A stretch of DNA of 64,000 bases from Syntrophobacterales bacterium (GTDB lineage: Bacteria; Desulfobacterota; Desulfobaccia; Desulfobaccales; 0-14-0-80-60-11). Shown piece by piece: positions 20,163 through 54,413 of the stretch (position 1 is the first letter of the stretch; each line of letters starts with the position of its first letter). The stretch spans positions 645 through 64,644 of the forward strand of contig JAGVAH010000048.1 in the NCBI GenBank assembly GCA_020060385.1, given 5' to 3'. The notes beneath the pieces were generated by a model. That model saw only the letters and a list, made by a program, of their open reading frames with translations, was not told the DNA's origin and did no database searches. The position numbers and the translations under genes are program-made.

Positions 20163-20299
20163 CCCCTGGCCCCCTTGCGCCACGTGCCTCTCACAGGAAT
20201 CTCAAACCAGGTCTCCGGCAAATGGTGGCCCAGGCTGGAAAGCCTGGGCCGGCGCAGCTTAAAGCCTGCGGCCACCCAAGACAGATTGACCTCCGCCCC

Positions 20300-22015
20300 A
20301 TGTTAGCGATACTTAGCATCTGGTTTTATGTGTTCCTGATCTGTTTGATTTATGGGGGCGCGGCCGCCAGGCTGCTGCTGCACCTTTTGGGAGAAGCAAA
20401 CCCTGATCCGGGGCGGCTGCCCCTTTCCCTGCTCACCATCTTGGGATTATCTTTAGTAACCACCCTGGCCGGCTATCTTTCTCTTTTCATAAAAATCGCT
20501 TTGCTGGCCAATGCCCTGGTCTTCCTGGGTGCCTTGCTCCTGGCCGGCATCTATTATGAAGAACTCACCCATTGCCTCCAGGCTGGCCTGCGGCGGTTAT
20601 TTGCTCTCCATAAATATATCCTGGCCTTATTTTTTTTAATTTTTCTCTTTATCCTGGTCCGGTCCGCGGCCCCTCCTTCCGCCTTTGATACCGGCCTCTA
20701 TCACGCCCAGGCCATCCGCTGGATTGAAGAGTATCCGGTGATCCCGGGATTGGGCAATCTGCACGGCCGGCTGGCCTTCAATTCCATGTGGTTACCGGCC
20801 AACGCCCTCTTCGGCTTTTCTTTCCTGAAGGTCCAGCCCTGCCACGTGCTGAATGGCTTTTTCCTATTAGTTTTTCTCTTTATCTGCCTGCAAGGCTTAA
20901 GTAATTTAATCAACAGGCAATATCATTTCAGCAATATTCTGCGGGCCGGCATGGCCCTCCCCGGGCTCCTGGTTTTTAAGGACCAGTTGTCGTCGCCTAC
21001 TCCGGATGTACCGGTAGCTTTATTGATCTGCCTCCTTTTCGTTTATTATGTCCAATTGCGGGAAAACCATGGGGAGGTTCCGGGGCAGTTCTTCTCCCTC
21101 CTCATTTGCTTCCTGGCCGCCTGGGCCATAACCATCAAATTATCCGCCCTGCCCTTGGCCCTGTTGATAGTAGCGATCGCCGGCAAGGAGATCGCCCGGT
21201 GCCATACCCGCAACTTATGTCTCCTGGCCGGGGGCGCCGCCTTCCTGGTACTCCCCTACTTCCTCAGAAACATCTGGCTCTCCGGCTACCTGCTCTACCC
21301 TTTTCCCGCTCTCGACCTCTTTCACTTTGATTGGCAGGTGCCCCCAGCCGCGGCCCTGGCCGAAAAGCGGGCCGTGGAGGCCTTTGCCCGGGACCCCGGG
21401 TACGTCTTGACTCCGGCCGCCTTAAACAGCGCCTTTGCCTGGGCGCCCACCTGGTTCCAACAGACCCTGGCGGATTACGGCAGTAAATTGGCCCGCATTC
21501 TTCTCCCGGGCCTGGTCCTCCTGGTGGATTGCCTGGTAAACGCCATCACCCGCAAAACCTGGGAGATCGACCTGGGGGAAATCGGCAAAAATGCGGTGCT
21601 CTACCTCACTGCCGCCGGGGGCCTTCTTTTTTGGTTCTTTACTGCGCCGGACCCCCGCTTTGCCATGGGTTATCTGCTGGTGGCGGTCATCATCATCTTC
21701 ATCCCCCTTCTTAAAGCCTTTGATTATCAGGTGACCAGGATATTCCCCTGGTCCCTGGCCTTATTAATGCTTTACTTTGTGGCGGCTTTTCTGCCCCCGG
21801 ATCTTCCCACCCTGGGTCAACGCCTCTGGCTGCCGGCTCCTTATCCCCAGGAACGGCTGACCGTGGAGGAGATTCAGGGCCGCCAGGTCTATTTTCCCGG
21901 GAACCCGGGGGGGAAATGCTGGTATGCCCCTCTTCCTTGTACCTATCACCCCGTTAATTTTGTGTTTCGGGGGGCCGGCATGAAAGACGGTTTCCAGGCC
22001 CGGAGCGCCCCCTAA
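20300..22015 (+). CDS. Large polytopic membrane protein, possible glycan polymerase/transferase (function unassigned)
   Basis: ATG at 20300. There are at least 12 predicted hydrophobic helices and a ~100-aa C-terminal soluble tail. I recognise no catalytic motif. The only functional argument is its position in the glycan cluster. Confidence 0.4.
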   Translation: MLAILSIWFYVFLICLIYGGAAARLLLHLLGEANPDPGRLPLSLLTILGLSLVTTLAGYLSLFIKIALLANALVFLGALLLAGIYYEELTHCLQAGLRRLFALHKYILALFFLIFLFILVRSAAPPSAFDTGLYHAQAIRWIEEYPVIPGLGNLHGRLAFNSMWLPANALFGFSFLKVQPCHVLNGFFLLVFLFICLQGLSNLINRQYHFSNILRAGMALPGLLVFKDQLSSPTPDVPVALLICLLFVYYVQLRENHGEVPGQFFSLLICFLAAWAITIKLSALPLALLIVAIAGKEIARCHTRNLCLLAGGAAFLVLPYFLRNIWLSGYLLYPFPALDLFHFDWQVPPAAALAEKRAVEAFARDPGYVLTPAALNSAFAWAPTWFQQTLADYGSKLARILLPGLVLLVDCLVNAITRKTWEIDLGEIGKNAVLYLTAAGGLLFWFFTAPDPRFAMGYLLVAVIIIFIPLLKAFDYQVTRIFPWSLALLMLYFVAAFLPPDLPTLGQRLWLPAPYPQERLTVEEIQGRQVYFPGNPGGKCWYAPLPCTYHPVNFVFRGAGMKDGFQARSAP

Positions 22016-22153: not shown

Positions 22154-23365
22154 GTGGAAAGTAAAAATAGTCCCCATCCTCAATCCTGGGCGCTTTTCCT
22201 GGGAAAATGCGCCCGGGGCTGCGGCCTTTTCCTCAAAACCTTATGGTTGATTATCGGCGCCACCCTCTTGCTGCTCCTCTTCCTGGAGGCAACCTGCGCC
22301 CTCATCTATCATTTGCTTCCCGGTAAAAGGGGCCCCGAGTATTTCCAGGAAAGCGCCAGTTATCAGAAATCTCCCTGGATTCATGATTACGATCAGGAAC
22401 TGTTCTCCAGCTACAATACTTCCTGGAGACCTTATAGATATTGGCGCCGCACCCCTTATAAAGGGAAGTATATTAATATAGACGAGCACGGCATCCGTTA
22501 CACCGTCCCCGGTAAGGTCAAGGCGGGTAATGCTTCCCAAAAGCTGAAGATCTTCATGTTCGGGGGCTCCACCCTCTGGGGGGAGGGAGTCCGGGACCAG
22601 TTTACCATTCCCTCCCTGCTGGCCCAGGATCTGGCCGACCGGGGCCTGAGAACGGAAATCACCAATTTCGGGGAAGTGGCCTACGTCAATACCCAGGAAC
22701 TGATCGAGTTGATATTGCAACTGGAGCGGGGGAATATTCCCGACATCATCATCTTCTATGACGGTTATAATGATGTTTATGCGGCCTTACAGAATCAGGC
22801 CGCGGGCTTCACCCAGTTTGAATGGAAGAGGGAGCTGGAATACAACATATCCACACGTTATAATAAACTTAAAAGGGTCTTTTTGTTAAACACCCTTGAT
22901 AGATTCTATTTGGGCAAATTGATAAAGTCATTATCCAATAAATTGAGTTACCAGAAACCTTTTTCCCAAAAGAGTAATACCTTGAAAAATGATGTAGTGG
23001 AGGTCTATTTAAATAATCTTAAGATCATTGCCGCGTTAGGTAAAGCTTATGGTTTCCTGCCGTTATTTTATTGGCAGCCGGTAATTTACACCAAAAAGAC
23101 CTTGACACTTTTTGAAAAAAGGTTTGCCACTGAACCCCTGGGAGATCTATACCGGCAGTCCCAGGCAGTGATGCAGGCCAGACAGCAAGAATTTGCGCCT
23201 TATCATTTTTTTGATATCAGCGGCTTATTTGCCGCCGCCCCCCATGAGGTCTACCTGGATTATTGCCATGTCAACGAGGATGCCAACCGGATTATCGCCC
23301 AGCGGCTGGCCGACGATTTGCTGCGGATTGCCAAGCCTTCTGTTCCAGCGCCGGCGGTGAAGTAA
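22154..23365 (+). CDS. Membrane-anchored SGNH/GDSL-family hydrolase, paralogue of 5472-6830
   Basis: GTG start with GGAGGAGAG upstream. One N-terminal TM helix, then MFGGSTLWGEG (Ser block), NFGEVAY, YDGYND (GxND), LDYCHVN (DxxH). The block order matches the first copy. Confidence 0.55.
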   Translation: MESKNSPHPQSWALFLGKCARGCGLFLKTLWLIIGATLLLLLFLEATCALIYHLLPGKRGPEYFQESASYQKSPWIHDYDQELFSSYNTSWRPYRYWRRTPYKGKYINIDEHGIRYTVPGKVKAGNASQKLKIFMFGGSTLWGEGVRDQFTIPSLLAQDLADRGLRTEITNFGEVAYVNTQELIELILQLERGNIPDIIIFYDGYNDVYAALQNQAAGFTQFEWKRELEYNISTRYNKLKRVFLLNTLDRFYLGKLIKSLSNKLSYQKPFSQKSNTLKNDVVEVYLNNLKIIAALGKAYGFLPLFYWQPVIYTKKTLTLFEKRFATEPLGDLYRQSQAVMQARQQEFAPYHFFDISGLFAAAPHEVYLDYCHVNEDANRIIAQRLADDLLRIAKPSVPAPAVK

Positions 23366-23860: not shown

Positions 23861-25261
23861 ATGTGTGCACTCACCTCTTTGGAAAATATTCACAACCCAG
23901 ATATTCTCCCCTCCCTGAAGTTCATGAACCTCGACTATGCCGACATTCTCGACCATTTTCCCGAAGGCGTCTTTCTCATCAACACCCGCTGGCAAGTGGG
24001 TTACTTCAACCAGATGGCCGAGGAAATCACCGGTTACACCCGGGAGGAGGTCATGGGCAAGTTCTGCTGGGACGTATTCCGGGCGGACATGTGCCAGAAA
24101 GACTGCCCCATGCGCATCTCCATGAGCACCGGGGAGGTCCTGGTGGACCAGGAGGTGGAAATCACCACCAAAGCCGGGATGAAAAGATTGATCCTGGTCA
24201 ATACCGCCCAGATCAAGAAGCCTGGCAACGTGGTGCTGGGGGGGGTGGAAACCTTTCACCACCTCACCTGTCCCGAAGCCGCGGCCAAGGCTGATGATCG
24301 GGGTTTTGCGGCCATTGCCGGGGTCAGCCCCCGGATGCAGGAGATTATTCAGAGCCTGCCGGTGATCGCGGCCTCCGATTCCAACGTGCTGATCCAGGGG
24401 GAATCCGGCACCGGCAAAGAACTGGTGGCCCGGGTCATCCACCAGCATAGCCCCCGGAGCAAAGGGCCCTTCGTGGCGGTAAACTGCTCGGCCATCCCCG
24501 AGACCTTGATCGAGTCGGAACTCTTCGGACATGAACGGGGGGCCTTCACCGGCGCGGTGAGCAGCAAGCCGGGCCGCTTCGAATTGGCCAAGGGCGGCAC
24601 CCTCTTACTGGACGAGATCGGCGACCTCAAGCCCGAACTCCAGGTGAAGCTGCTGCGCGTCCTGGAGGTCAAGGCCTTTATGCGGGTGGGGGGCACCCGC
24701 AAAATCCCCCTGGAAGCCAGGATCATGACCGCCACCAATGTGGACCTCATGGAAGCCATGCGCCAGGGCAAGTTCCGGGATGACCTTTATTACCGGCTGT
24801 TCACCGTGCCCATTGATCTGCCGCCTCTCCGGGAAAAACGGGAGGATATTCCCATCCTGGTGAAGTGCTTCCTGGAGCAGCTCAACCGCAAATTCAATAA
24901 AAAGGTGCGGGGGGTGGACCCCAAGGTCATGAAGATCCTCTGCCGCCATTCCTGGCCCGGCAATGTCCGGGAGCTGCAGCATGTCCTGGAATACTGCTTC
25001 GTCTTTGCCAAAGGCCCCCTGATCACCGAACGCCACCTGCCCCGCCTGGAATCATCCTGGGCCGGCCGGGAACTGGAGCTGCCCCTGGCCGATAAGGCCA
25101 TGAGCCCCCTGCAGTCGCTAGAAAAGAAAACCATTCTCATGGCCCTGCAGATGAGCCAGGGCAGCAAGCAGGACGCGGCCCGGATCCTGAAGATCAGCCG
25201 CAGCAAACTCTGGCGGAAGATGCGGCTCTACCATCTCGGCGACAAGGACTTTAAAAAATAA
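23861..25261 (+). CDS. Sigma-54-dependent transcriptional activator (PAS sensor - AAA+ - Fis-type HTH)
   Basis: PAS-like N-terminus with a Cys cluster [19 protein letters not shown]+ motifs [15 protein letters not shown] and ERGAFTGA (GAFTGA loop). C-terminal [22 protein letters not shown] 23861 follows GGAG; 23924 is an alternative start. Confidence 0.85.
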
Positions 25262-25342
25262 GACGTTTTTTAAATATGCGACAATTTCCCCGCTTATATA
25301 ACTACTAAATATTTAAAATAAAAATAAGCCATCCTTAATCTG

Positions 25343-25360
25343 TGTTGCAATTTTGTAACA
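25343..25360. promoter_or_regulatory. Dyad-symmetric site TGTTGCAA-TT-TTGTAACA (candidate UAS)
   Basis: The two 8-nt half-sites are inverted repeats (7/8). The site lies about 270 bp upstream of the sigma-54 promoter and is related to 23655-23669. Confidence 0.4.
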
Positions 25361-25615
25361 AACCTTCCCTATCAATAATTTTTCTAGAAAATATTTGGTT
25401 GATAAGTAAATCCAGAAATCATCGGTCTCCGGTGAAATCAAAACACCCTTTCATTTACGCGACATTGTTTGGAAATAATTAACTCCTTGAAATACTTAAT
25501 ATTTACTAAGTGCCTCCAAAAAACGTTTTAATTCCGCTCATTTCCAACCCCGGTAAATCCCTCGGGCTCCCCCCCCACCTTCATAATTATTATTAGTTTC
25601 AACTAATTATCCGTT

Positions 25616-25631
25616 TGGCCCCGTCCTTGCT
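25616..25631 (+). promoter_or_regulatory. Sigma-54 (-24/-12) promoter TGGCCCCGTCCTTGCT
   Basis: GG at 25617-25618 and GC at 25629-25630, matching the spacing of the consensus TGGCACG-N4-TTGCW. It lies 47 nt upstream of the nuoE-like ATG, directly downstream of a sigma-54 activator gene. Confidence 0.7.
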
Positions 25632-25677
25632 CTGTTTGCCGTTGAGAGCAAATCCCCGAACAGAGGAGGAAAGGTCT

Positions 25678-26145
25678 ATGAGTGTCACATTTAAGGTCCT
25701 GGAAACTATCCTGGAGCGCTATCCCCCCAGTTCGGAGCACCTCATCAGCGCCCTACAGGATGTACAGGCCCGGTTCAATTACATTCCCCCGGAGGCGATG
25801 ACCGCGGTCTGCGACCATCTGGGGGTGCCGCTGTCCCGGGGTTGGGCGGTGGCCACCTTCTATAAATCCTTTAGCCTGGAGCCCAAAGGCGAACACGATG
25901 TGGCGGTGTGCCTGGGCACGGCCTGTCACGTCAGGGGCGGCCGCAACGTCTATGACAAGTTCCGGCGGGATCTGGGCATTGCCGCTCAAGAAGGGACCAC
26001 CCGGGACCTCAAGTTCTCCCTGCGCCAGGTGCGGTGCCTGGGTTGTTGCTCCATGGCGCCGGTGGCCCAGGTGGACGAGGAGATTCACGGCAATCTCAGC
26101 CAGCGGAAAGCGGGGCATCTGCTCCGGATGTACCGCAAGAGGTGA
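25678..26145 (+). CDS. NuoE/HoxE-like [2Fe-2S] thioredoxin-fold subunit
   Basis: SD GAGGAGGA upstream. Cys pattern CLGTACHVRG ... CLGCCSMAP is typical of NuoE/HydC. Confidence 0.8.
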   Translation: MSVTFKVLETILERYPPSSEHLISALQDVQARFNYIPPEAMTAVCDHLGVPLSRGWAVATFYKSFSLEPKGEHDVAVCLGTACHVRGGRNVYDKFRRDLGIAAQEGTTRDLKFSLRQVRCLGCCSMAPVAQVDEEIHGNLSQRKAGHLLRMYRKR

Positions 26146-26150
26146 GGGTC

Positions 26151-28061
26151 ATGCAGATAACCAGCATCGACGATTTGCAAAAGGCAAAGGTCGGGGGCCT
26201 GGCCCAGCTTTATCCCCCCAAACCCAAGATTCTGGTGGGCATGGCCACCTGCGGGCTGGCGGCCGGGGCCCAGCGGGTCTACGACCTGCTCCACAAGAAG
26301 GCCCAGCAAGAACATTGGGAAGGGGTGGTGGAAAAGACCGGCTGCATCGGCATCTGTTACCAGGAACCCCTGGTGGACCTCATTATTCCGGGCAAGCCCC
26401 GGGTAACGTATGCGGAGATGTCGCCGGAGAAGGCAGAAGCCCTCTGGGAGGAGCTGGCCGCGGGCCGCGTGCCGGAAAAACAGGTTCTGGCCCGGATGGA
26501 CGTGGACGGCATGATCCTGGATGGCGGCCCCCGGAAACTCTATCAGGGCAAACTGAAAGGTTTTCTGGCCAAAGTGCCACGTTATGAAGACCTGGACTTC
26601 TTCAAGCTGCAGCGCCACATCGCCATGCGCAACTGCGGCTTCATCGATCCGGACAACCTGCTGCAATACATCGCCCGGGGCGGCTATTTCGCCCTCTATA
26701 CCGCGCTGACGACCATGACCCCGGACCAGGTCATCCAGGCCGTGACCACCGCGGGCCTCCGGGGCCGAGGGGGCGGCGGCTTCCCCACCGGGGTCAAGTG
26801 GGCCTCCTGCCGCAAGGCCAAGGGCTGGCCCAAGTACGTGCTGTGCAACGCGGATGAAGGGGATCCGGGCGCCTACATGGACCGGAGCCTCATTGAGGGC
26901 GACCCCCACTCCATCCTGGAAGGCATGCTCATCGGCGCTTATGCCATCGGCTCCAGCGAAGGCTACATCTACGTGCGGGCCGAATACCCCCTGGCGGTCA
27001 AGACCTTGCAGCGGGCCATCCTGGCGGCCAGGGAAGCGGGGCTCCTGGGGACCAACATCCTGGGCAGCGGTTTTTCCTTTGACCTCAAGCTCAACCTGGG
27101 AGGCGGGGCCTTCGTCTGCGGGGAATCCACCGCGTTGATGGCCTCCATTGAGGGCAAACCCGGCGAGCCCCGGGCCAAGTACGTCCATACCGCGGATAAG
27201 GGCTTGTGGAACCGCCCTTCCAATCTCAACAATGTGGAAACCTGGGCCAACGTGCCGGTGATCATCGCCAAGGGCGCGGACTGGTACCGGGACATCGGCA
27301 CCGAGGGCAGCAAGGGCACCAAGATCTTTTCCCTGGTGGGCCAGGTGAAAAACGTGGGCCTGGTGGAAGTTCCCATGGGCGTCAGCATCAAGCAGATGGT
27401 CCAGGATATCGGCGGCGGCGTGCCGGAGGACCGGGAGTTCAAGGCCCTGCAGATCGGCGGCCCCTCGGGAGGCTGCATCCCCAGGGAGCAATGGGACCTG
27501 CCCATCGACTTTGACTCCCTCTGGGACGCGGGGGCCATGATGGGCTCCGGCGGCATGATCGTCATGGACAACTCCACCTGCATGGTGGATGTGGCCAAGT
27601 TTTTCCTGGACTTTCTCATCGACGAATCCTGCGGCAAATGCATCCCCTGCCGCCTGGGCCTGAAACGCATGCGGGAGCTGTTGGAGGAGTTTTCCTCCGG
27701 CAAGGGCTCCCTGGAGGATCTGGAAGAACTGCAGTCTCTCTCGGAAGCGGTGAAGGACGGCTCCCTTTGCGCCCTGGGAGGCTCGGCCCCCAACCCGGTG
27801 CTCACCACCCTCCGCTATTTCCGGGAGGAATACGAAGCCCACATCCTGCACCATAAATGCCCGGCGGCAGTCTGCAAGGAGTTGATCACCTACACCATCA
27901 CCCCGGAGCTGTGCAACGGCTGCACCGCCTGTGTCCAGGAGTGCCCCCAGGGGGCCATCACCGGGACCAAGAAGGAACCCCACACCCTGAACTCGGCCCT
28001 GTGCATCAAGTGCGGCGCCTGCTTTGAGGTCTGCAAGTTCGGGGCGGTGGCGGTGGCCTGA
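26151..28061 (+). CDS. NuoF/HydB-like NAD(P)H-binding FMN/FeS subunit with an N-terminal [2Fe-2S] domain and a C-terminal 2x[4Fe-4S] ferredoxin domain
   Basis: GRGGGGFPTGVKW (FMN site), CNADEGDPGAYMDR (NADH site), ESCGKCIPCRLG (N3 cluster), CNGCTACVQECP and CIKCGACFEVC. ATG at 26151 after GAGGTGAGGG. Confidence 0.85.
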   Translation: MQITSIDDLQKAKVGGLAQLYPPKPKILVGMATCGLAAGAQRVYDLLHKKAQQEHWEGVVEKTGCIGICYQEPLVDLIIPGKPRVTYAEMSPEKAEALWEELAAGRVPEKQVLARMDVDGMILDGGPRKLYQGKLKGFLAKVPRYEDLDFFKLQRHIAMRNCGFIDPDNLLQYIARGGYFALYTALTTMTPDQVIQAVTTAGLRGRGGGGFPTGVKWASCRKAKGWPKYVLCNADEGDPGAYMDRSLIEGDPHSILEGMLIGAYAIGSSEGYIYVRAEYPLAVKTLQRAILAAREAGLLGTNILGSGFSFDLKLNLGGGAFVCGESTALMASIEGKPGEPRAKYVHTADKGLWNRPSNLNNVETWANVPVIIAKGADWYRDIGTEGSKGTKIFSLVGQVKNVGLVEVPMGVSIKQMVQDIGGGVPEDREFKALQIGGPSGGCIPREQWDLPIDFDSLWDAGAMMGSGGMIVMDNSTCMVDVAKFFLDFLIDESCGKCIPCRLGLKRMRELLEEFSSGKGSLEDLEELQSLSEAVKDGSLCALGGSAPNPVLTTLRYFREEYEAHILHHKCPAAVCKELITYTITPELCNGCTACVQECPQGAITGTKKEPHTLNSALCIKCGACFEVCKFGAVAVA

Positions 28062-28072
28062 AAGGAGGGAAC

Positions 28073-28648
28073 ATGATCACCTTTTCCATCAACGGCCAAG
28101 AAGTCGGGGGAGAGGAAGGCTGGACCGTCCTGGATGTGGCCAGGTGGCACGGCATCGAGATCCCCACTCTCTGCCACCACGAGGCGATGGAGCCTTTCGG
28201 GGCTTGCCGCCTGTGCGCGGTGGAGGTGGATGACGGCAGGCGCACCCGGGTGGTGATCTCCTGCATGTATCCCATTCGGGAGGGCATCAAGGTGCAGACC
28301 GAGACCCCCCGGGTGGCCAACGTGCGCCGCTGGATCGCCCAGTTGCTATTGGACGAAAGCCCCCAGGCGCCGAATATCCAGGAGTTGGCCAAATCTTTCG
28401 GGGTGACCCCTTCCCGGTTCAAAAAGACGGGAGTGGAGTCCGCCTGCCACCTCTGCGGCCTCTGCATCAGGGCCTGCCAGGAGGTGGTGGGGGTGCAGGC
28501 TCTCACCTTCGGCAACCGGGGGGTCCTCAAAGAGGTCACCTCGCCTTACCATCGCCGGAGCCAGGATTGCATACGCTGTGGAACCTGTCTTTACGTCTGC
28601 CCCACCGGGGCCATGGAACAAATCTTTCCCCTGGTCAGCAGCGAGTAA
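28073..28648 (+). CDS. NuoG-N-terminal-like [2Fe-2S]/[4Fe-4S] ferredoxin subunit
   Basis: CHHEAMEPFGACRLCAVEV (2Fe-2S), CHLCGLCIRAC, CIRCGTCLYVCPTGA. Only the electron-wire part is present, with no molybdopterin or hydrogenase domain. Confidence 0.7.
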   Translation: MITFSINGQEVGGEEGWTVLDVARWHGIEIPTLCHHEAMEPFGACRLCAVEVDDGRRTRVVISCMYPIREGIKVQTETPRVANVRRWIAQLLLDESPQAPNIQELAKSFGVTPSRFKKTGVESACHLCGLCIRACQEVVGVQALTFGNRGVLKEVTSPYHRRSQDCIRCGTCLYVCPTGAMEQIFPLVSSE

Positions 28649-28691
28649 GCCATTGCGGCCCTATAGACGCAGGCAGAAGAAGGAGATCTCC

Positions 28692-31115
28692 ATGAAAACC
28701 GAAAGCAAAATAGGCGTTTTCCTGTGCGAGTGCGGGGGCAAGATCAGCGGCCGCATAGATTTGCAGGAGGTACGCGAGTTGACCCGATATGAACCCTGGG
28801 CCCATTTCGAAACCTCCCCCTACCCTTGTCTGGCCCCCGGTCTGGAAACCATCCGCAAGCAAGTCCAGGATAAGGGGTTGGACCGCATCATGGTGGCCGG
28901 CTGCTCCTCCCGGATCATGAAAAAGAGGTTCACCAATGGTCTGGCCGCGGTGGGCATCCAGAGGCATCAAATAGAGATGGTCAACCTCAAGGACCACGTG
29001 GCCCTGGTGCACGAAGCCGGCCCCCAGGAACTGGCCCGCAAGGCTGCGGCCCTGATCAGCGGCGGCCTGGCCAGCCTCAGGCTCCTGGAGCCTTATGAAC
29101 CCGTGTCCCTGCCCTTCGAGGGACCCGCGCTCATCTTGGGAGGCGGCGTCTCCGGCTTCGCTGCGGCCCGGGAACTGGCCCGCCATGGTTTGGAGAGCGT
29201 GGTCTTTTCTAAGGCCTTAGAGGCTGAGCGGGTTCTGGAGGAGCTGCATTGGACCTTCCCCGGCTGCCGTATCTTCTGCGGCGACTTGGGGGAATTTCTC
29301 CGGGAGGTGTTCACCAGCCCTAAAATCAAAATAATGCCTGATCAGCCCATAGATTATATCGTCGGCGGCGTGGGCGACTATCATGTGGGGCTGCGGCAGC
29401 CTGACAACACGATCACCGAAGTTAACGGCGCGGCCATCATTGTCGCCCTGGACCGGGAATTCGCCCCCCCGGAAATCGCCCATATCGGCGGCGGTGAGCG
29501 GGTGCTCGATCTGCTGGACCTGGAAGAGCAACTGGTGGAAGGGGAATTTAAACCCGGCAAGGTCCTCTTCTGGGTGAACAGCCCCCAGCACGGCAAAGAC
29601 GCACAAGAGTTGGCGACCATGGCCGCGTGGCGGGATAGCCTGTTGTTGGCCCGGGAGCATCCCCAGGTCCAACCCACGGTGCTCTATCCGGCCAACATCG
29701 CCCTGCCCCTGGCCGGAGCCGACCTGGTGGAGGCCCGGGCCCACGGCATCGGGCTGATGTCTTACGCGCCGGAGGTGCATCCGGTGGTCCAGTCCGGCTA
29801 CTTGAGCTTTGTGAGTCCTGCGGACAACCTGGAACATGAAGTGGAGTGGGACACCCTGGTAGTTCCGGGGGTGCCAGGAGACCCGGGGGCCAAGGCCCAG
29901 GAACTGCTGCGGTGGCTGCCCATTTATCCGGAAAACGGGGGCCGCCTCCAAAAGAGCCACATCAAATTCTGGCCGGATCAGGTCCCGGACGAGTCCCTCT
30001 TTTTTACCGGCTCCGCCGGGGGTCTCTGCGACCTGAATGATGTGTTGCAACAGGGGAAGAATGCGGCCCGGGGAGTGTTGCGGCTCCGGGAAAAAGCCCT
30101 GGAAGGCAAATTGGTGAGTCCGGTGGTGGTGCATGTGGATAAGGACCTCTGCGAGGGTTGCGGCCTGTGCACCGAGATCTGTCCCTGCGGCGGCGTGGAA
30201 CACGTCAAACCAGGGAGCGGCCCGGTCCCCCGGGAGGTGGACAACCACCTCTGCAGCGGCGGCGGCACCTGTGCGGCCACCTGCCCTTATGAAGCCGTGA
30301 AGATCCTCAATAACACCGCGCAGCAGTTGGAAGCCCGCCTCAAGGCCATGATGGCCCGGATGCAGGAAAACGATATCCTGGGCTTTGTTTGCGGCTGGGG
30401 CGGCTTGGCTTCCGCGGAACAAGCCGCGATCAAGGGGGTCGCCTACCCCAGCGGCATTTATCTGGTGCCGGTGAACTGCCTGGGCTCCATTGACCCCTTC
30501 ATTCTCTCCATGGCCTTTCTGAACGGGGTCAAGGGCATCATGCTGGCCGGCTGCACGCCCAAACATTCCTGCCATTACCACTTCGGAGTAGACCACTGCT
30601 GGTATCGGGTCAACGCCATGAAAAAACTCCTTTCCCTGGCCGGTCTGGAGCGGCGGCGGATCTCCATCGGCTACGTGGAGGTCAATGAGCCGAATTCCTT
30701 TGCCCGCATGGTGGAGTCCCACATGGAAAGCCTGGGAAAGCTGCCGCCCCTGCCCCAGGATGAGAAGAGCAAGGCCAAACTCTGGGCCATTCACGCCACC
30801 CTGCACCGGCCCCGGGTGCGTTGGGTCCTGGGGACCAGCCTGAGGCGGCCGGCGGAGAAAGAATTCCCCGGCTCCCAGTTCAACGCCGTGGAAGCGGACG
30901 AGACCATGTTGGATGTGCTCAAGGAAGAATTTCTGGCCTCCAGAATTCTCAAGGCCTTGAGCGACCAGCCCCTCAATCCGCCGGGAATCGCCCGGCTTAT
31001 GGACGAGCCGGTGAAAAACATTACCCCTCTGTTGCCGGATATGGCCAACGAGGGCCGCATCGCCCTCCAGGGCTGGGAGGGAGGCTACCCGGTTTATGCC
31101 GTGGGCAAGGCGTGA
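28692..31115 (+). CDS. HdrA-like FAD/FeS oxidoreductase fused to an MvhD (FlpD) domain
   Basis: SD AAGGAG. Dinucleotide fold ALILGGGVSGFAAARELARHG, inserted ferredoxin CEGCGLCTEICPCG, and the C-terminal MvhD-type block ILGFVCGWGGLASAE...VNCLGSIDP...MLAGCTPKHSCHY. Confidence 0.7.
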   Translation: MKTESKIGVFLCECGGKISGRIDLQEVRELTRYEPWAHFETSPYPCLAPGLETIRKQVQDKGLDRIMVAGCSSRIMKKRFTNGLAAVGIQRHQIEMVNLKDHVALVHEAGPQELARKAAALISGGLASLRLLEPYEPVSLPFEGPALILGGGVSGFAAARELARHGLESVVFSKALEAERVLEELHWTFPGCRIFCGDLGEFLREVFTSPKIKIMPDQPIDYIVGGVGDYHVGLRQPDNTITEVNGAAIIVALDREFAPPEIAHIGGGERVLDLLDLEEQLVEGEFKPGKVLFWVNSPQHGKDAQELATMAAWRDSLLLAREHPQVQPTVLYPANIALPLAGADLVEARAHGIGLMSYAPEVHPVVQSGYLSFVSPADNLEHEVEWDTLVVPGVPGDPGAKAQELLRWLPIYPENGGRLQKSHIKFWPDQVPDESLFFTGSAGGLCDLNDVLQQGKNAARGVLRLREKALEGKLVSPVVVHVDKDLCEGCGLCTEICPCGGVEHVKPGSGPVPREVDNHLCSGGGTCAATCPYEAVKILNNTAQQLEARLKAMMARMQENDILGFVCGWGGLASAEQAAIKGVAYPSGIYLVPVNCLGSIDPFILSMAFLNGVKGIMLAGCTPKHSCHYHFGVDHCWYRVNAMKKLLSLAGLERRRISIGYVEVNEPNSFARMVESHMESLGKLPPLPQDEKSKAKLWAIHATLHRPRVRWVLGTSLRRPAEKEFPGSQFNAVEADETMLDVLKEEFLASRILKALSDQPLNPPGIARLMDEPVKNITPLLPDMANEGRIALQGWEGGYPVYAVGKA

Positions 31116-31241
31116 GTAGCCAGAAAGATAAAATAATGTCAAGTCCCGGACCCAAGTTCCTGCTCCTGGAGTGTTAAGGCCGCTTTAAGAAGCCAGTTCA
31201 CCTAGGGGCCGGAACTTGGATTGACCGGGCAGGAGGCCCCC

Positions 31242-32348
31242 ATGAAAACTTTTGCCGATTTGATCCAGGAGGTCCAAGAACCAGGCCTCTGTCACCAATG
31301 CGGTGGTTGTGTAGCGTTTTGTAACGCCATCAATTATGGGGCCTTGGAGTTGGGACCTGACGGCCGGCCGCGCTTCAGCAATAAGGAAAAATGCATCGAG
31401 TGCGGCATCTGCTATTCCATCTGTCCGGTGATCCATGAGCTGGACGAAGACACCAAAGAACTGGTATCCTGGAGCGCGCCTTTGGGCCGTGTCATGGGCA
31501 GCGCCGTGGCCCGGGCCGCTGCCCCCCAGGTGCGGGCCCAGGCCACCGACGGCGGGGTGATCACCGCGCTTTTACTCCACCTCTTTGACCGGGGCCGTAT
31601 CGATGCGGCCATCGTCAGCAAGACGGTGGGCCCCTTCCAGCGTCGGCCCTGGCTGGCCCTCACCCGGGAAGACATCGCCGCCGCGGCCGGGTTCCACTTC
31701 GACACGCTCCCCAGCATTAAGCATTTCTCCGATTTTTACACCACCTATTCCCCCTCCATCGTGGGACTGGGGGCCGCGGCCCGGAAATCCTTGAAAAGGG
31801 TGGCCTTTGTGGGTACGCCTTGCCAGATCAAAGCCTTGCGGCGCATGGAGGTTCTGGGGGTGGTGCCCGCCGATGCCATCAAATTCCATTTCGGCCTGTT
31901 CTGCGCCGGCAATTTCCAGTTCGGCCCGGAACAGCGGCAGCGTCTGGAACAGATGGGCAATTTTACCTGGGGCGAGGTCCAGAAAGTCAACCTCAAAGAA
32001 GACCTGTTAATCCACTTGAATAACGGGGAAATCCGCGCCCTGCCCCTAAAGCAGCTTGATTTTATGAAACGGCACGCCTGCCGCTTCTGCGACGATTATG
32101 CCGCGGAGTTTGCCGACCTTTCCTTCGGAGGCATTGGCGCGCCTCAGGGCTGGACCACCGTCATCATTCGCTCCTCCATTGGGTCGACGGTCTGGGCCGA
32201 GGCCCGGGGAGTGGATATTGAAATGTACAATTACCGGGAAAATCCCGCCTTGACCTCCCAGGTCATGGCCAAGGTGGAGGAATGGTCCGATAAGAAAAAG
32301 AAATCGGCCCTGGAATATTTCCAGGACCTGGAGAAGAAAGCCATCTAA
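31242..32348 (+). CDS. FrhB/FdhB-family (coenzyme F420 hydrogenase/dehydrogenase beta-like) flavo-FeS protein
   Basis: SD AGGAGG. N-terminal 2x[4Fe-4S] (CHQCGGCVAFC, CIECGICYSICP), then FrhB-like blocks DGGVITALL, FVGTPCQIKALRR and RFCDDYAAEFADLSFGG. Confidence 0.7.
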   Translation: MKTFADLIQEVQEPGLCHQCGGCVAFCNAINYGALELGPDGRPRFSNKEKCIECGICYSICPVIHELDEDTKELVSWSAPLGRVMGSAVARAAAPQVRAQATDGGVITALLLHLFDRGRIDAAIVSKTVGPFQRRPWLALTREDIAAAAGFHFDTLPSIKHFSDFYTTYSPSIVGLGAAARKSLKRVAFVGTPCQIKALRRMEVLGVVPADAIKFHFGLFCAGNFQFGPEQRQRLEQMGNFTWGEVQKVNLKEDLLIHLNNGEIRALPLKQLDFMKRHACRFCDDYAAEFADLSFGGIGAPQGWTTVIIRSSIGSTVWAEARGVDIEMYNYRENPALTSQVMAKVEEWSDKKKKSALEYFQDLEKKAI

Positions 32349-32451
32349 GGTAAGGCCGCAGAAGGGGCTTTTTGCATGGAAAGCGCCTGAGGAAATGACT
32401 TGCACCCGGGGATCATCCCAAAACTTAAGTTAGACTGGGGGCCAAGTCAGC

Positions 32452-32492
32452 CCAGAGATCCTGGCGGCGCCTGGCGCAGCCAGGATCTCTGG
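32452..32492. repeat. Perfect 14-bp inverted repeat (CCAGAGATCCTGGC / GCCAGGATCTCTGG) with a 13-nt loop
   Basis: Arms at 32452-32465 and 32479-32492, about 100 nt after the frhB-like stop. No T-tract follows, so it is not a canonical intrinsic terminator. Confidence 0.85.
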
Positions 32493-32804
32493 CAGGCGCG
32501 ACGGCGGCGGGTGCCGATGGTCGATAATCAAGAGCCCTAGGGGGCCTGATCGTCTGTTATCCCTGTGGCCGGCGCCCTGTCAGGACCTGGGCCGCGGTCT
32601 AGCCGGGCCAGGCCCCCTCTGCTACCCGCAACTTTCCGATAATCCCTTCCGCCGCGTACCGCTGCCTGTGCATCTCCCTGCCTCCCTGCAATCCACCTCT
32701 CTAATTTACCCTAGGGATCAGTTTTCAGGGGTGAGGTTATACCATTTTATCTTTCTAATGCATCAAATATGAACATTGACAAAGGTCCTTTAATACCATT
32801 TTCT

Positions 32805-32889
32805 TGTAGGGGGGCACCCATATGTGCCCCCAAACCGTGCGGACATGCCGAGGCTCTAAGGGCGGACACGCGGGTCCGCCCCTACAGAG
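32805..32889. repeat. GC-rich composite palindromic element (GTAGGGG...CCCCTAC family), left copy flanking the NRPS block
   Basis: Contains hairpins GGGGCAC-N6-GTGCCCC and GGCGGAC-N6-GTCCGCC. It shares the 18-mer CGGACACGCGGGTCCGCC (32863-32880) and a 16/18 match of GCACCCATATGTGCCCCC with the copy at 62341-62395. Confidence 0.8.
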
Positions 32890-33107
32890 AAATTGCCGTT
32901 AGATTGCGACTTGGCATGATAAGATTAATCACCCGATCCACGGGTTGGGACCGTGAGCCTCGGCAGATGTCCTTGAACTTCCTGATCAGTTCCGGACCTT
33001 TCCTGAGTATGGGCGGGTAAGGCGGCCGCCACCCCCCGTTGAGGCTCCGCACTACTCATGGGAAAAAAAAATTACCGACCCGGGAACCCTTGCCCAGACA
33101 CGCAACC

Positions 33108-35367: not shown

Positions 35368-36141
35368 TCAGGACAGCCTCTGGCCGATAAACGCCGCGCC
35401 GATTGCGCCCCTGACTTGCGGATTGTCAGCCACAAAGACCTTCATTCCCAGCGCTTCCTCAAGCGCCCTGACCACGCCGCGGTTCAAGGCAACTCCTCCA
35501 CTCATTCCCAGAGGGCCGCTGATGCCCACAGTCCTGAGCAGCGAGATAGCCCGTGTGGCTATCGAGTTGTGGACCGCCTTGACGATATCCGGAATCGGCG
35601 TCCCCACGGCCACCAGTGACACCACCTCCGTCTCGGCAAACACCGTGCAGGTGCTGCTGATACGCACGGTGTTCTGGGAAAGCGCGGACACCTCCCCGAG
35701 GTCCGTAAGCTCCAGCCCCATAGCCTTCGCCGTAACCTCCAGAAATCTGCCGCAACCCGCGGCGCACTTGTCATTCATGGCGAAGGATTCCACATTCCCA
35801 GCCTCATCGATCCGAATAGCCTTGCTGTCCTGGCCGCCAATTTCCAGGATGGTTCTTATCTCCGGATTCAGGAGGTGCATCCCTATTGCATGGCAGGTAA
35901 TCTCGGAGATGTGTTTGTCGGCAAAGGGAACGTTCTCCCTCCCGTAGCCGGTGGTCACCACAAAGCCTATGTCATTGCGCGTCAGCCCTGCCTTGCCGAG
36001 CACATTCTCATAGGTCAATTCCGTGGCGGTCCGATTGCTGCCGCCGGTCAAAACGAGATCGAAGCCGATAACCTCCCAAGTCTCGTTCATGAGAGCAGCT
36101 TTTGTTGACAAAGAACCGACGTCAATACCTGCAGTGATCAC
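35368..36141 (-). CDS. BcrAD/BadFG-family ATPase: activator (archerase) of 2-hydroxyacyl-CoA dehydratase (HgdC/HadI/FldI type)
   Basis: MITAGIDVGSLSTKAALM (ASKHA phosphate-1). Bridging-cluster cysteines in CAAGCGRFLE and ISSTCTVFAE. GTG start after AAGGAGAG. Confidence 0.85.
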   Translation of the reverse strand: MITAGIDVGSLSTKAALMNETWEVIGFDLVLTGGSNRTATELTYENVLGKAGLTRNDIGFVVTTGYGRENVPFADKHISEITCHAIGMHLLNPEIRTILEIGGQDSKAIRIDEAGNVESFAMNDKCAAGCGRFLEVTAKAMGLELTDLGEVSALSQNTVRISSTCTVFAETEVVSLVAVGTPIPDIVKAVHNSIATRAISLLRTVGISGPLGMSGGVALNRGVVRALEEALGMKVFVADNPQVRGAIGAAFIGQRLS

Positions 36142-37382: not shown

Positions 37383-37391
37383 GTGTCCACC

Positions 37392-54244: not shown

Positions 54245-54413
54245 ATCCTCTCTCCTGACCGCCTGTCCGCCATGAGAATGCGTCATAAAAGTCCAAGGCA
54301 GACAACTTGGATGACGATCTGACAAACTGCTTAAGGTACCCTAGCGATTGGAGGAAAGTGGTCAAATCGCTGGCTTGCCGCCTGGTAGCCCAATGACCTC
54401 TTTCGACATGCTC

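Follow-up and report, generated by a model that had tools for sequence, protein, structure and literature searches.

A conserved NuoEF-ferredoxin-HdrA/MvhD-FrhB operon of a Syntrophobacterales bacterium: a possible Bfu-type enzyme with a degenerate HdrA adaptor

We analysed a five-gene operon in a 64-kb stretch of Syntrophobacterales DNA (hereafter the window, meaning that whole stretch) and found that it is conserved as a unit in Thermodesulfobacteriota, in uncultured relatives of sulfate reducers. Our preferred reading, which we hold tentatively and consider possible, somewhat short of probable, is that it encodes a soluble Bfu (HydABC-like) bifurcating or confurcating enzyme in which an HdrA/BamF-like protein would serve as adaptor and a third substrate, X, would react at the flavin of an FrhB-like subunit.

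Results

Organization and conservation of the operon

Between 25678 and 32348, five co-directional genes on the forward strand encode a NuoE-like protein, a NuoF-like protein, a ferredoxin, an HdrA-like protein fused to MvhD and an FrhB-like protein (Table 1). A sequence-only reading had claimed this arrangement, and Pfam and NCBIfam models confirm every domain that it named; its range for the intergenic gaps (5-93 nt) was slightly off, since the gaps measure 5, 11, 43 and 126 nt, the last being 105 nt if FrhB starts with the TTG at 31221. A polysaccharide cluster lies before the operon and an NRPS/dehydratase cluster after it.

A synteny survey of the five-gene set recovered the same order, led by a sigma-54 activator gene, in more than 25 independent contigs, and the arrangement is therefore not due to chance. 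DNA homology to the closest long relative, locus L089, extends from 23909 to 32346, ending at the FrhB stop codon. The operon ends after FrhB in the window and in loci L083 and L090, and goes on in L089 (82-91% identical), L001, L086, L087, L101, L102 and L120, where it is extended by one or two proteins of ~1000 residues and an MvhD of 250-260 residues. These large proteins are fused double HdrAs of the BamE-like kind (VE, GGxM, DCAMU, an inserted ferredoxin domain, CVGSR..CS.VCCMYAIK and a C-terminal ferredoxin domain); they contain selenocysteine, with Cys197/Sec present, and have no leading N-terminal domain. With such proteins encoded downstream in close relatives, the complex may ancestrally have been a larger one. 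Many genomes, among them that of the isolate Dethiosulfatarculus sandiegensis, have the four-gene core by itself, and in some loci FrhB orthologues adjoin BamE-like HdrA proteins without NuoEF.

No CCG/HdrBC protein, hydrogenase large subunit, molybdopterin formate dehydrogenase, MetF or Etf is encoded anywhere in the 64-kb window, in agreement with the partners reported missing by the sequence-only reading. A BamE-like HdrA gene is equally absent from the 64 kb, and no remnant of one was found in 32349-33107. The description of an orphan module holds for this locus; it fails in close relatives that have BamE-like HdrA dimers and a BamF-like MvhD, and one lineage has a CCG/HdrD-like gene adjoining the HdrA-like gene.

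Table 1 Features of the operon and its surroundings in the window
Feature	Position	Strand	Length or basis
Sigma-54-dependent activator gene (PAS, AAA+, Fis-type HTH)	23861..25261	+	Pfam Sigma54_activat E 8e-68, PAS_9, HTH_8
Three TGCGACA/TGCAACA boxes, AT-rich leader	25277..25464	+	Boxes at 25277-25283, 25343-25360 (palindromic pair) and 25458-25464; conserved blocks in six-locus alignment A4; repeat/palindrome search
Sigma-54 type -24/-12 promoter, TGGCCCCGTCCTTGCT	25616..25631	+	46 nt before NuoE ATG
NuoE-like (BfuC/NuoE/HydC-like)	25678..26145	+	155 aa
NuoF-like (BfuB/NuoF/HydB-like)	26151..28061	+	636 aa
2Fe-2S/2x[4Fe-4S] ferredoxin (short BfuA)	28073..28648	+	191 aa
HdrA-like + MvhD fusion	28692..31115	+	807 aa
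HdrA-type N-terminal domain	28692..29096	+	Aligns to HdrA residues 11-140
Degenerate thioredoxin-reductase-like domain	29118..30101	+	AF2, Foldseek, hhalign, alignment A1
C-terminal ferredoxin domain of fusion	30123..30311	+	Fer4 matches, residues 479-537
Long MvhD/BamF-like domain	30375..31115	+	PF02662 E 4.9e-29
FrhB-like	31242..32348	+	368 aa
Hairpin, 20-nt arms, 95% complementary, 1-nt loop	32452..32492	+	104 nt after FrhB stop

The Bfu-type core

The NuoE-like protein matches PF01257 (E 1.3e-44) together with the HoxE and NuoE models, and its translation has a Cx4C...Cx3C motif in a thioredoxin-like [2Fe-2S] cluster domain. The NuoF-like protein (PF01512, PF10589 and Fer4) consists of an N-terminal Trx-like domain, the FMN/NAD(H) site, the NuoF [4Fe-4S] domain and a Cys/His linker, followed at the C-terminus by a 2x[4Fe-4S] domain for the docking of ferredoxin. 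Its best solved relatives are StnB (8oh5_B, E 4e-219), 9bov_B, NfnB (9n5u_B) and HydB (7q4v/8a6t/7p5h), with E-values from 1e-183 to 4e-219 against StnB, NfnB and HydB. Alignments show that all the cluster cysteines of these relatives are kept, including the three-Cys N-terminal pattern and the HHKCPAAVC linker; the clusters in question are missing from non-bifurcating homologues. The pair, which had been proposed to be of the bifurcating (Bfu/HydBC) type, accordingly reads as a complete HydBC/StnAB-like core with the full cofactor set of characterised bifurcating cores, and should handle NAD(H) and ferredoxin.

The 191-residue ferredoxin matches PF13510 and Fer4_7 in Pfam and the HoxU and group A6 hydrogenase N-terminal models in NCBIfam. 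It has one [2Fe-2S] and two [4Fe-4S] clusters, is without the His-ligated cluster, and is closest among solved structures to 9mqx_A (E 5.8e-39), from an entry in which chain B is the NuoF-like subunit. The earlier description of it as an iron-sulfur wire is supported: it is a short BfuA/HoxU/NuoG-N-terminal-like protein.

A degenerate HdrA fused to MvhD

The 807-residue protein is an HdrA-MvhD fusion judging by its predicted fold, as had been proposed. No Pyr_redox match was found by Pfam in its thioredoxin-reductase-like domain, whose AF2 model (pLDDT 89) has HdrA 5odc_A as top Foldseek match (E 8e-34). We aligned this domain to HdrA of M. thermolithotrophicus with hhalign and built a family alignment (A1). 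The flavin domain still has its GGG loop and its C-terminal G-x6-D motif, and half of the FAD fingerprint is lost; VEK has become FSK, and both GGRM and the acidic residue that ends strand beta2 are gone. The same alignments reveal neither an inserted ferredoxin domain nor the C386/C399/C403/C404 [4Fe-4S] cluster, nor Cys197/CxxC; the position of Lys409 is Arg314 in the clade of the window and R, Q, L, H, N or S across the family. Since the cluster of the thioredoxin-reductase-like domain and the inserted ferredoxin domain are both missing, neither exit path of HdrA is present.

Cysteines C12, C14, C46 and C71 of the N-terminal domain are invariant in alignment A1, as are C487, C490, C493, C497, C499, C521, G523, G525, C527 and C531 of the C-terminal ferredoxin domain, which carries motif I (CxxCxxCxxxCPC) and motif II (CxxGxxCxxxCP); the second cysteine of motif II is replaced by glycine in 11 of the 13 family members. 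In alignment to MvhD (5odc_D), the [2Fe-2S] domain keeps four cysteines (C567, C596, C621 and C627), while the canonical CCNWC has become VCGWG and an extra Cys pair is lost. A C-terminal extension of ~120 residues ends in a helix-helix-helix-hairpin arrangement that is winged-helix-like in the AF2 secondary structure, and the domain shares 26.6% identity with the Sec-MvhD of locus L086 (252 residues) in an alignment of 241 residues. More generally, the last 240 residues of the fusion can be aligned with long MvhD proteins of the BamF-like kind. The best NCBIfam model for residues 309-685 is HdrA2 (NF040770), at a score of 292 against a cut-off of 1100. By these features the fusion keeps the parts that make up the mobile input arm of HdrA/BamE systems, namely the N-terminal cluster domain, the C-terminal ferredoxin domain and MvhD with a BamF-like winged-helix tail. 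The features on which bifurcation by HdrA depends have all been lost, and the protein is best read as an adaptor.

The FrhB-like protein and the third substrate

The FrhB-like protein (PF04422 and PF04432) begins with a 2x[4Fe-4S] ferredoxin domain, continues with an FrhB_N and FrhB_C core for FAD and [4Fe-4S], and has a helix at its C-terminus. Among solved structures it is closest to 8rja_E (E 1e-40) and 8riu_B, followed by FrhB and Fsr; these best matches in sequence and fold are F420-reducing modules of identical domain order. It scores under the NCBIfam frhB cut-offs, and its family includes HCAR, whose substrate is not F420. As suggested earlier for X, this protein offers the one plausible place that remains for hydride transfer with a third substrate. 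Most simply, X would be a mid-potential carrier of two electrons, for instance F420, a different deazaflavin or a flavin-like compound. Our check for F420-biosynthesis genes, which covered the 64-kb window, found none. F420 biosynthesis is not known from Desulfobacterota, a group that the 2021 review of F420 does not mention. The four-gene core occurs without FrhB in many related loci; therefore the site for X may be on the HdrA-like protein or on a partner whose gene lies elsewhere.

Regulation and transcript end

In nearly all related loci the gene immediately before NuoE is that of the activator, and the boxes in the AT-rich leader are candidate binding sites for its product. In 15 of 16 loci NuoE is preceded, at a distance of 37-103 nt, by a GG-N10-GC element, the core of which is mostly TGGC or TTGC, and TGGCC...CTTGCT is invariant across the six loci of alignment A4. 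The -24/-12 pattern occurs four times in the 64-kb window against 0.65 expected. The operon is best read as sigma-54-induced. The bam genes of benzoyl-CoA reduction are likewise under sigma-54-type regulation. Downstream, beyond the point at 32346-32348 where homology to relatives stops, the stable hairpin possibly marks the transcript end; it has no T-run.

Comparison with known systems

Among complexes whose substrates are known, none is orthologous to the operon. Its closest characterised counterparts are the BamGHI-BamF-BamE input arm and Elp-Hdr, and the closest predicted one is F420-Bfu. Class II benzoyl-CoA reductase of Geobacter metallireducens, Bam[(BC)2DEFGHI]2 (Bam-Bfu), provides a precedent for the wiring in its chain of BamGH, BamI, the BamE ferredoxin domain and BamF (cryo-EM preprint, 10.64898/2026.04.10.717634). 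Both systems combine a HydBC-type NuoEF-like pair (BamGH) and an iron-sulfur wire (BamI) with an MvhD-type adaptor that bears a winged-helix tail (BamF) and with an HdrA-type subunit, which takes up the electrons, or in the window would do so, at its C-terminal ferredoxin domain. Genuine BamE-like fused HdrA dimers occur in relatives of the window. Unlike Bam, the window has no BamB (tungsten), BamC or BamD (CCG), its HdrA-like protein is a single unit that lacks bifurcating hallmarks and forms one chain with the BamF-like part, and there is an additional FrhB-type flavoprotein. The gene order also differs, being G-H-I-(E/F) here and E-F-G-H-I in Geobacter.

F420-Bfu, itself uncharacterised, is predicted in Methanothrix/Methanosaetaceae to convert NADH and reduced ferredoxin to F420H2, and is reported absent from bacteria (Schut et al. 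2022, PMC9304861). It shares the BfuBC core, a short BfuA and an FrhB-type F420-reducing FAD domain as third-substrate module; that domain is fused to BfuA, whereas the FrhB of the window is separate and a degenerate HdrA/MvhD protein is inserted. In Stn/NfnABC and HydABC (8oh5, 9n5u, 7q4v, 8a6t, 7p5h), the third-substrate module resides in BfuA, as an NfnB-like NADP(H) domain or an H-cluster, whereas BfuA here is a bare wire.

In Elp-Hdr (ElpABC-HdrABC) of Methanothermobacter marburgensis, the chain runs from ElpB (FrhB/FdhB-type) through ElpC (MvhD) to HdrA (PMC12350162). [quoted passage not shown] HdrA2 of Methanosarcina acetivorans (HdrA2B2C2; NF040770) shows the same HdrA-then-MvhD fusion, but still has the inserted ferredoxin domain, a clustered thioredoxin-reductase domain and its HdrB2C2 partners. 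The three-part layout of the FrhB-like protein, in which the N-terminal domain is for docking, recurs in the F420-reductase subunits of Ca. Ethanoperedens CODH and Fwd (8RIU, 8RJA), for which F420 use is demonstrated (PMC11493965); those subunits are archaeal, dock on CODH or Fwd and are about 26-28% identical.

Discussion

The sequence-only reading had placed bifurcation on the HdrA-like protein, with NAD(P)H electrons arriving via NuoEF and being split between ferredoxin and X on FrhB. We consider this version very improbable and a bifurcating role for this flavoprotein unlikely. Its HdrA fold, N-terminal cluster domain, C-terminal ferredoxin domain, MvhD, retained glycine loop and G-x6-D motif, and Arg314 in the clade of the window would suit such a role; against it stand the loss of both exits, of Cys197/CxxC, of conservation at Lys409, of the beta2-end acidic residue, GGRM and the extra MvhD Cys pair, the low HdrA2 score, and an intact bifurcation site already in the BfuBC core. 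A non-bifurcating, inducible NADH-dependent reductase is another explanation: electrons would flow one way to the FrhB or HdrA-like flavin without ferredoxin coupling, and the acceptor might be, for example, sulfur, a disulfide or a stress-related compound. This explanation seems to us quite unlikely. Control by a PAS/sigma-54 activator does suggest signal-driven induction, NADH alone reduced most BamGHI clusters in vitro, and neighbours in relatives include CoA-disulfide-reductase/rhodanese, DsrC, DsrMK-like, Usp, MsrA and pyridine-nucleotide-disulfide oxidoreductase genes; these neighbours, however, are variable rather than conserved, and BfuB keeps every cluster that separates bifurcating from non-bifurcating NuoF homologues.

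The five proteins may instead be no more than the input arm of a larger assembly that works in two stages and resembles class II benzoyl-CoA reductase, its BamE-like fused HdrA being encoded elsewhere in the genome; HdrA-type bifurcation would then take place on that partner and feed high- and low-potential acceptors. We rate this proposal as rather unlikely. The seven extended operons argue for it, as do the agreement of the relatives' proteins with the published description of BamE and BamF, the complementary N-terminal-domain/Cys197 pairs described for archaeal tandem HdrA genes, and the FrhB orthologues that adjoin BamE-like HdrA. It is opposed by the three loci without BamE-like genes, by homology that stops exactly at the FrhB stop with neither remnant nor gene in the window, by the many genomes with a solitary core, and by the fact that most of these clusters are without a BamB/C/D-type output.

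For the soluble Bfu-type enzyme that we prefer, the window, L083 and L090 loci, ending after FrhB, represent a stand-alone unit, and the conserved activator gene and promoter point to co-regulation. The BfuBC core would couple NADH, reacting at the FMN, with reduced ferredoxin, reacting at the C-terminal BfuB clusters. Mid-potential electrons would leave BfuA for the degenerate HdrA protein, where they would meet its ferredoxin domain and MvhD cluster and perhaps also a non-bifurcating flavin and the N-terminal cluster. They would go on to FrhB, moving through its N-terminal ferredoxin domain and [4Fe-4S] cluster to the FAD, which would exchange hydride with X in a reversible reaction. The product would be an iron-sulfur flavoenzyme in which known energy-coupling parts are put together in a new arrangement.

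Gene content of the operon and its surroundings

The operon comprises five genes on the same strand, separated by 5, 11, 43 and 126 nt, and all the domains named for them in the sequence-only reading of this DNA were recovered by Pfam and NCBIfam. The partners that this reading had listed as absent are indeed missing, as no CCG/HdrBC protein, hydrogenase, formate dehydrogenase, MetF or Etf is encoded across the 64-kb window. Neither the BamB tungsten (AOR-family) subunit nor BamC or BamD (CCG) was found in the window or in the related loci examined. A class II benzoyl-CoA reductase was considered and rejected on this lack of BamB, BamC and BamD; the HGD-D and BcrAD genes nearby lie on the opposite strand, within an NRPS-type cluster.

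The 759-bp non-coding stretch 3' of the FrhB-like gene has no homology to the relatives and contains a hairpin and GC-rich palindromic elements. A tblastn search of this stretch and of the whole window with the relatives' proteins, for remnants of downstream HdrA/MvhD genes, matched only the operon itself. Rfam gave no matches between 22000 and 34000, and scans for sigma-70 promoters and intrinsic terminators returned match numbers no higher than in shuffled sequence.

Features of the window, with domain assignments or remarks
Feature	Coordinates	Strand	Remarks
Polysaccharide/O-antigen cluster	19-20162	+	Wzy_C, ABC-2/Wzt transporter, pyruvyl transferase, NeuB, CMP-sugar synthetase, DegT aminotransferase, asparagine synthase, glycosyltransferases
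Two ORFs after the polysaccharide cluster	20222-22015; 22154-23365		597 aa; 403 aa; no Pfam match
Sigma-54 activator gene	23861-25261		PAS/AAA+/HTH, directly 5' of operon
-24/-12 element	25616-25631		46 nt 5' of NuoE start
Other exact TGGC-N7-TTGCT matches	23307-23322; 36024-36039; 59616-59631
NuoE-like gene	25678-26145	+	Pfam/NCBIfam
NuoF-like gene	26151-28061	+	Pfam/NCBIfam
Ferredoxin gene	28073-28648	+	Pfam/NCBIfam; 191 residues
HdrA-like/MvhD gene	28692-31115	+	Pfam/NCBIfam; 807 residues
FrhB-like gene	31242-32348	+	Pfam/NCBIfam; 368 residues
Non-coding stretch	32349-33107
Hairpin	32452-32492		20-nt arms
GC-rich palindromic elements	32798-32893
Secondary-metabolite-type cluster of an anaerobe	33108-59952	-	Downstream of operon
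Methyltransferase and radical-SAM protein	in 33108-59952	-
BcrAD/BadFG-type ATPase	35368-36141	-
Two HGD-D dehydratase subunits	36165-38933	-
NRPS genes	38522-47893; 47811-51023; 51020-54325	-	Five C-A-T modules; system has accessory genes
Acyl-CoA dehydrogenase, asparagine synthase, AMP-ligase	in 33108-59952	-	Listed with NRPS genes
PPTase	60860-61702		Listed with NRPS cluster

NuoE and NuoF form a Bfu-type core, with the ferredoxin as a wire

Matches of the NuoF-like protein (BfuB) to PF01512, PF10589 and Fer4 correspond to the FMN/NADH domain, the NuoF [4Fe-4S] cluster and a C-terminal 2x[4Fe-4S] ferredoxin domain. The protein matches the B subunits of solved bifurcating enzymes (StnB 8oh5_B, E 4e-219; 9bov_B, 9e-218; NfnB 9n5u_B, 8e-215; NiFe-HydB 7t2r_B, 3e-210; HydB 7q4v, 8a6t and 7p5h, 1e-198 to 3e-183) far more strongly than NuoF of complex I (about 1e-100), and in the alignments all cluster cysteines are shared with StnB, 9bov_B and NfnB. 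Residues 26-111, the N-terminal thioredoxin-like domain, align to StnB 2-86 with a C...CxxxC pattern common to both, while at the linker Cys/His (B2/Zn) site HHKCPAAVC is aligned to DKKCPAKSC. According to Schut et al. (PMC9304861), such extra clusters distinguish bifurcating Bfu enzymes from non-bifurcating NuoF homologues, which lack the N-terminal cluster domain and the linker site.

The NuoE-like protein (BfuC) is a thioredoxin-like [2Fe-2S] protein (PF01257, E 1e-44). The ferredoxin matches PF13510 and Fer4_7, carrying a [2Fe-2S] and two [4Fe-4S] clusters without the His-ligated cluster, and among solved structures it comes closest to 9mqx_A, chain A of entry 9MQX from the WorABCSL paper; it is a short BfuA wire. 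Judged at the sequence level, the operon passes as a member of the Bfu family (BfuABC/HydABC-type). The NuoEF pair of bifurcating type with a small FeS wire that had first been proposed is borne out, the BfuBC cofactor set being complete with every cluster cysteine of BfuB kept.

The HdrA-like protein lacks the parts predicted for bifurcation

An AlphaFold model of the HdrA-like protein, built from 60 sequences, is confident (pLDDT 89, pTM 0.81). In Foldseek searches with this model the top places went to chains of HdrA (5odc_A, E 8e-34; TM up to 0.66) and the next to thioredoxin-reductase-type flavoproteins, and phmmer also matched the protein to HdrA, leaving query residues 235-383 unaligned. 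The family shows the fold of HdrA; its cluster domain at the N-terminus and its ferredoxin domain at the C-terminus both hold invariant cysteines, and no member has a Pyr_redox Pfam match, whereas canonical HdrA has one.

In HdrA and BamE, the two electrons have separate exits: the thioredoxin-reductase-domain cluster serves the high-potential one, whereas the low-potential one leaves by the 'shuttle' cluster of the N-terminal domain and the ferredoxin insertion (10.64898/2026.04.10.717634, PMC12350162). We recovered the HdrA sequence of M. thermolithotrophicus from a printed alignment, with C386, C399, C403, C404, K409, E356 and C197 at the expected numbers, and aligned it profile-to-profile with the HdrA-like family (hhalign). 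The inserted ferredoxin domain (2x[4Fe-4S], exit to ferredoxin) is missing from the HdrA-like protein as a clean 72-column deletion, and the segment aligned to the thioredoxin-reductase-domain [4Fe-4S] site (Cys386/399/403/404, exit to HdrC) has no cysteine. Across the family alignment, the interval of residues 71-487 contains no invariant cysteine at all. The position of Lys409, which lies at flavin N5, is Arg314 in the clade of the window's protein, while other members of the family have Q, L, H, N or S there; the Cys197/DCxxC segment, next to the flavin in HdrA, reads FPGCRIFC in the window and varies among relatives (FPGSQLFS, YPGERHY). Of the FAD fingerprint (GxGxxG, an acidic residue closing strand beta2, GG(R/V)M and a C-terminal G...D motif), the protein retains the GGG loop and G440-x6-D447, with VEK changed to FSK and GGRM to AERV. 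[quoted passage not shown]

By these features the protein keeps the input or mobile-arm parts and has lost both HdrA exits, and it fails as a bifurcating HdrA: it is an HdrA by fold, but probably not by function. The sequence-only reading had made HdrA the bifurcating flavoprotein, a role that is unlikely given the loss of the inserted domain, the four cluster cysteines, conservation at Lys409 and Cys197, and GGRM. Its view of a module without adjacent hdrBC or catalytic subunits holds for the 64-kb window, where no HdrBC or CCG-domain partner is found, but not for one relative (L081), in which a CCG/HdrD-like protein adjoins the HdrA-like gene.

The MvhD domain of the fusion (PF02662, 101 bits against a cut-off of 22) has exactly four cysteines, all invariant; the extra CC..C cysteines are gone and the canonical CCNWC reads VCGWG. 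Its 120-residue tail is predicted by the AlphaFold model to end in a helix-helix-helix-hairpin arrangement, and the last 240 residues of the fusion align with MvhD proteins of 250-260 residues in relatives. BamF exceeds the usual length of an MvhD by more than 100 residues and contacts BamI through a winged helix (10.64898/2026.04.10.717634); judged by this published description, the long tail may be of the BamF type.

The FrhB-like protein resembles archaeal F420-reducing subunits

The assignment of the last gene to an FrhB-family flavo-FeS protein stands, with the FrhB_N and FrhB_C core (PF04422, PF04432) and the [4Fe-4S] cysteines present, and GTPCQ, GLFC and CxxC conserved in comparison with 8rja_E. 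In sequence the protein comes closest to 8rja_E (E 1e-40) and 8riu_B (2e-39), followed by FrhB of Methanosarcina and Methanothermobacter and then Fsr; HCAR is a far weaker match. Foldseek gave the same order (TM 0.69-0.84) with a structure model of no more than moderate quality (pLDDT 64.5, and less than 50 in the N-terminal domain), which was therefore used for fold ranking only. Both entries come from Ca. Ethanoperedens, 8RIU being its F420-reducing CODH component and 8RJA its Fwd complex (PMC11493965). The CODH F420-reductase subunit consists of an N-terminal 2x[4Fe-4S] docking domain (1-83), an FAD/[4Fe-4S] F420-reductase domain (84-349) and a C-terminal extension (PMC11493965), a three-part layout common to our protein. 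On the other hand, its scores lie below all NCBIfam cut-offs (TIGR03289, 140 vs 331.5; PRK09325, 165 vs 269; FpoF, 100 vs 475), so that it is a family member and not an equivalog. By its genes and scores, the operon fails both as a Bam system and as a carrier of an frhB equivalog.

Over 31242-32174 of the FrhB gene, the window shares about 71% DNA identity with four loci (L001, L104, L083, L002) and about 82% over the other four genes; identity to L089 and L090 is about 83% throughout, FrhB included. The drop may reflect either two alleles of FrhB or a recombination event at the last gene. FrhB orthologues (68-70% identical) also occur fused to an N-terminal response-regulator receiver domain (P0163 at L088 5121-6623, P0185, P0222); the L088 gene stands alone, adjoining genes for a pyridine-nucleotide-disulfide oxidoreductase, MsrA and Usp.

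The unit is conserved among relatives

A synteny survey had been proposed with the sequence-only reading, and we surveyed loci in three ways: the HdrA-like family was scanned against a genome collection, FrhB against metagenomes, and exact proteins were looked up. The unit proved conserved, the order activator-NuoE-NuoF-ferredoxin-HdrA-like recurring among the more than 25 loci recovered. All hosts are Thermodesulfobacteriota/'delta-proteobacterial' MAGs (Desulfobaccales, Syntrophobacterales, Desulfarculaceae, Desulfatitalea, Desulfotignum), apart from the isolate Dethiosulfatarculus sandiegensis, a cultured organism whose four-gene core (the operon without FrhB) makes experiments feasible. 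DNA homology (blastn) between the window and its closest long relative, L089, covers 23909-32346 and stops at the FrhB stop codon. FrhB is not limited to close relatives, as the metagenome scan also placed it after a divergent (36% identical) HdrA-like clade and beside canonical fused HdrA.

Gene arrangements around the core in the window (W) and in related loci (L numbers)
Arrangement	Loci
FrhB as last gene, after close or divergent (36% identical) HdrA-like clade	W, L001, L002, L083, L086, L087, L089-L094, L097, L098, L100, L102, L104
No further gene beyond FrhB	W, L083, L090
FrhB, then one or two ~1000-residue proteins and long MvhD	L089, L001, L086, L087, L101, L102, L120
Four-gene core alone, some with NifU/IscU-like ORF	many loci
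CoA-disulfide-reductase/rhodanese gene 3' of core	L085
Ferredoxin and HdrA-like pair adjoining 770-residue CCG/HdrD-like protein, 1124-residue HdrA, MvhD and a different FrhB	L081
FrhB orthologues adjoining fused HdrA proteins, without NuoEF	L105-L107, L111, L112, L114

The ~1000-residue proteins of the relatives each consist of two HdrA units, fused and permuted. VE, GGxM, the selenocysteine motif DCAMU, a ferredoxin insertion and CVGSR...CS.VCCMYAIK with its lysine are all present in the first unit; the second has neither CxxC nor lysine and carries its ferredoxin domain at the end. This is the architecture reported for BamE (10.64898/2026.04.10.717634). At L089 10345-17291, and also in L086, L087, L101 and L120, the BamE/BamF architecture (DCAMU double HdrA and a 250-260-residue MvhD) occurs without BamB/C/D. 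In one Desulfobaccales lineage (L081 9378-22430), the ferredoxin/HdrA-like pair occurs without NuoEF, with a further large HdrA-like protein near and Ku/LigD genes upstream. Small NifU/IscU-like ORFs (..NPDG..GSCGD..) lie 3' of the HdrA-like gene in divergent-clade loci without FrhB (L007 13331-13738, L011 12766-13215, L013 12481-12915, L014 6390-6821), immediately adjacent in L007 and L013.

A predicted sigma-54 promoter precedes the operon

Between the activator gene and NuoE lies the -24/-12 element TGGCCCCGTCCTTGCT, and 15 of 16 loci carry a similarly placed GG-N10-GC element. In an alignment of six promoter regions TGGCC...CTTGCT is unvarying, with three TGCGACA/TGCAACA boxes and a GGAGG ribosome-binding site also conserved. 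Scanning for exact matches to TGGC-N7-TTGCT gave 4 in the window, with 0.65 expected. Among the other three, the match at 23307, about 540 nt 5' of the activator gene, could be a candidate sigma-54 promoter of the activator itself. Taken together, the loci show a conserved stand-alone five-gene unit under predicted sigma-54 control.

Discussion

The operon and its relatives show a Bfu core joined to an adaptor derived from HdrA/BamF and shorn of the bifurcating hardware, together with a flavoprotein of the FrhB type, which elsewhere belongs to the F420 chemistry of archaea. Among known systems, it stands nearest to class II benzoyl-CoA reductase (its BamGHI-BamF-BamE arm), the predicted F420-Bfu of archaea, Elp-Hdr/Fdh-Hdr, HdrA2 and Stn/NfnABC; for the gene set itself we found no description in the searchable literature, in which reviews on HdrA modules are incompletely covered.

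We propose that NADH and ferredoxin would be coupled in the BfuBC core rather than at an HdrA flavin. Electrons would then pass through BfuA into the fusion protein, by way of its ferredoxin domain and its MvhD cluster, possibly also via a non-bifurcating flavin and the N-terminal cluster, and on to the N-terminal ferredoxin domain and FAD of the FrhB-like protein, where hydride would be exchanged with a third substrate, X. This wiring from BfuBC through BfuA, fusion and FrhB to X is tentative, and we give it not quite an even chance. The third substrates best suited to Bfu enzymes have potentials near -400 mV, e.g. H2, formate, NADPH or F420 (Schut et al., PMC9304861), which fits a deazaflavin-type carrier as X. 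An F420-like X would account for about half of the probability that we assign to the wiring. Use of F420 in this lineage is unproven. Other FrhB relatives act in tetrapyrrole reduction, the 64-kb window, the stretch scanned, holds no F420-biosynthesis genes, and Desulfo- taxa are nowhere mentioned in a review of F420.

Alternatively, the five proteins may be the input arm of a two-stage complex resembling Bam, with a BamE-like partner encoded at another locus. Extended clusters found among close relatives speak for such an arm, as do the N-terminal domain and Cys197, which are complementary; stand-alone loci nevertheless exist, and we consider this explanation unlikely though far from negligible. 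The variable neighbour genes hint instead at an inducible, non-bifurcating NADH-dependent reductase, perhaps linked to sulfur or redox stress, but the intact Bfu signature argues against it, and we hold it improbable. Least credible to us is HdrA-type bifurcation by the degenerate flavin domain, as first suggested for this DNA, which we regard as very improbable.

The wiring through FrhB has a bolder form, in which the operon would encode the first bacterial FrhB-linked Bfu enzyme, interconverting NADH plus reduced ferredoxin and a deazaflavin (F420 or a new analogue), with 'dead' HdrA-BamF fusions, a class not recognised before, connecting Bfu cores to interchangeable output modules without bifurcating themselves. 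We think this specific form doubtful; if true, it would place F420-type redox chemistry in sulfate-reducer and syntroph lineages where it is not known.

Electron bifurcation is a way for anaerobes near the thermodynamic limit to produce low-potential ferredoxin. The 2026 benzoyl-CoA reductase structure demonstrated that modules of the Bfu type can be linked in a chain with those of the HdrA type (10.64898/2026.04.10.717634), and in the operon and its relatives the building blocks of that chain are put to other uses. For specialists in bifurcation, the interest lies in the 'dead' HdrA adaptor and the bacterial FrhB module rather than in a new principle. If the proposed mechanism is right, the operon would represent a new functional type within the Bfu family and a natural case of an HdrA turned into a mere connector, and it would pose a testable question, namely whether sulfate-reducing and syntrophic Thermodesulfobacteriota use a deazaflavin or bacterial FrhB has another substrate.
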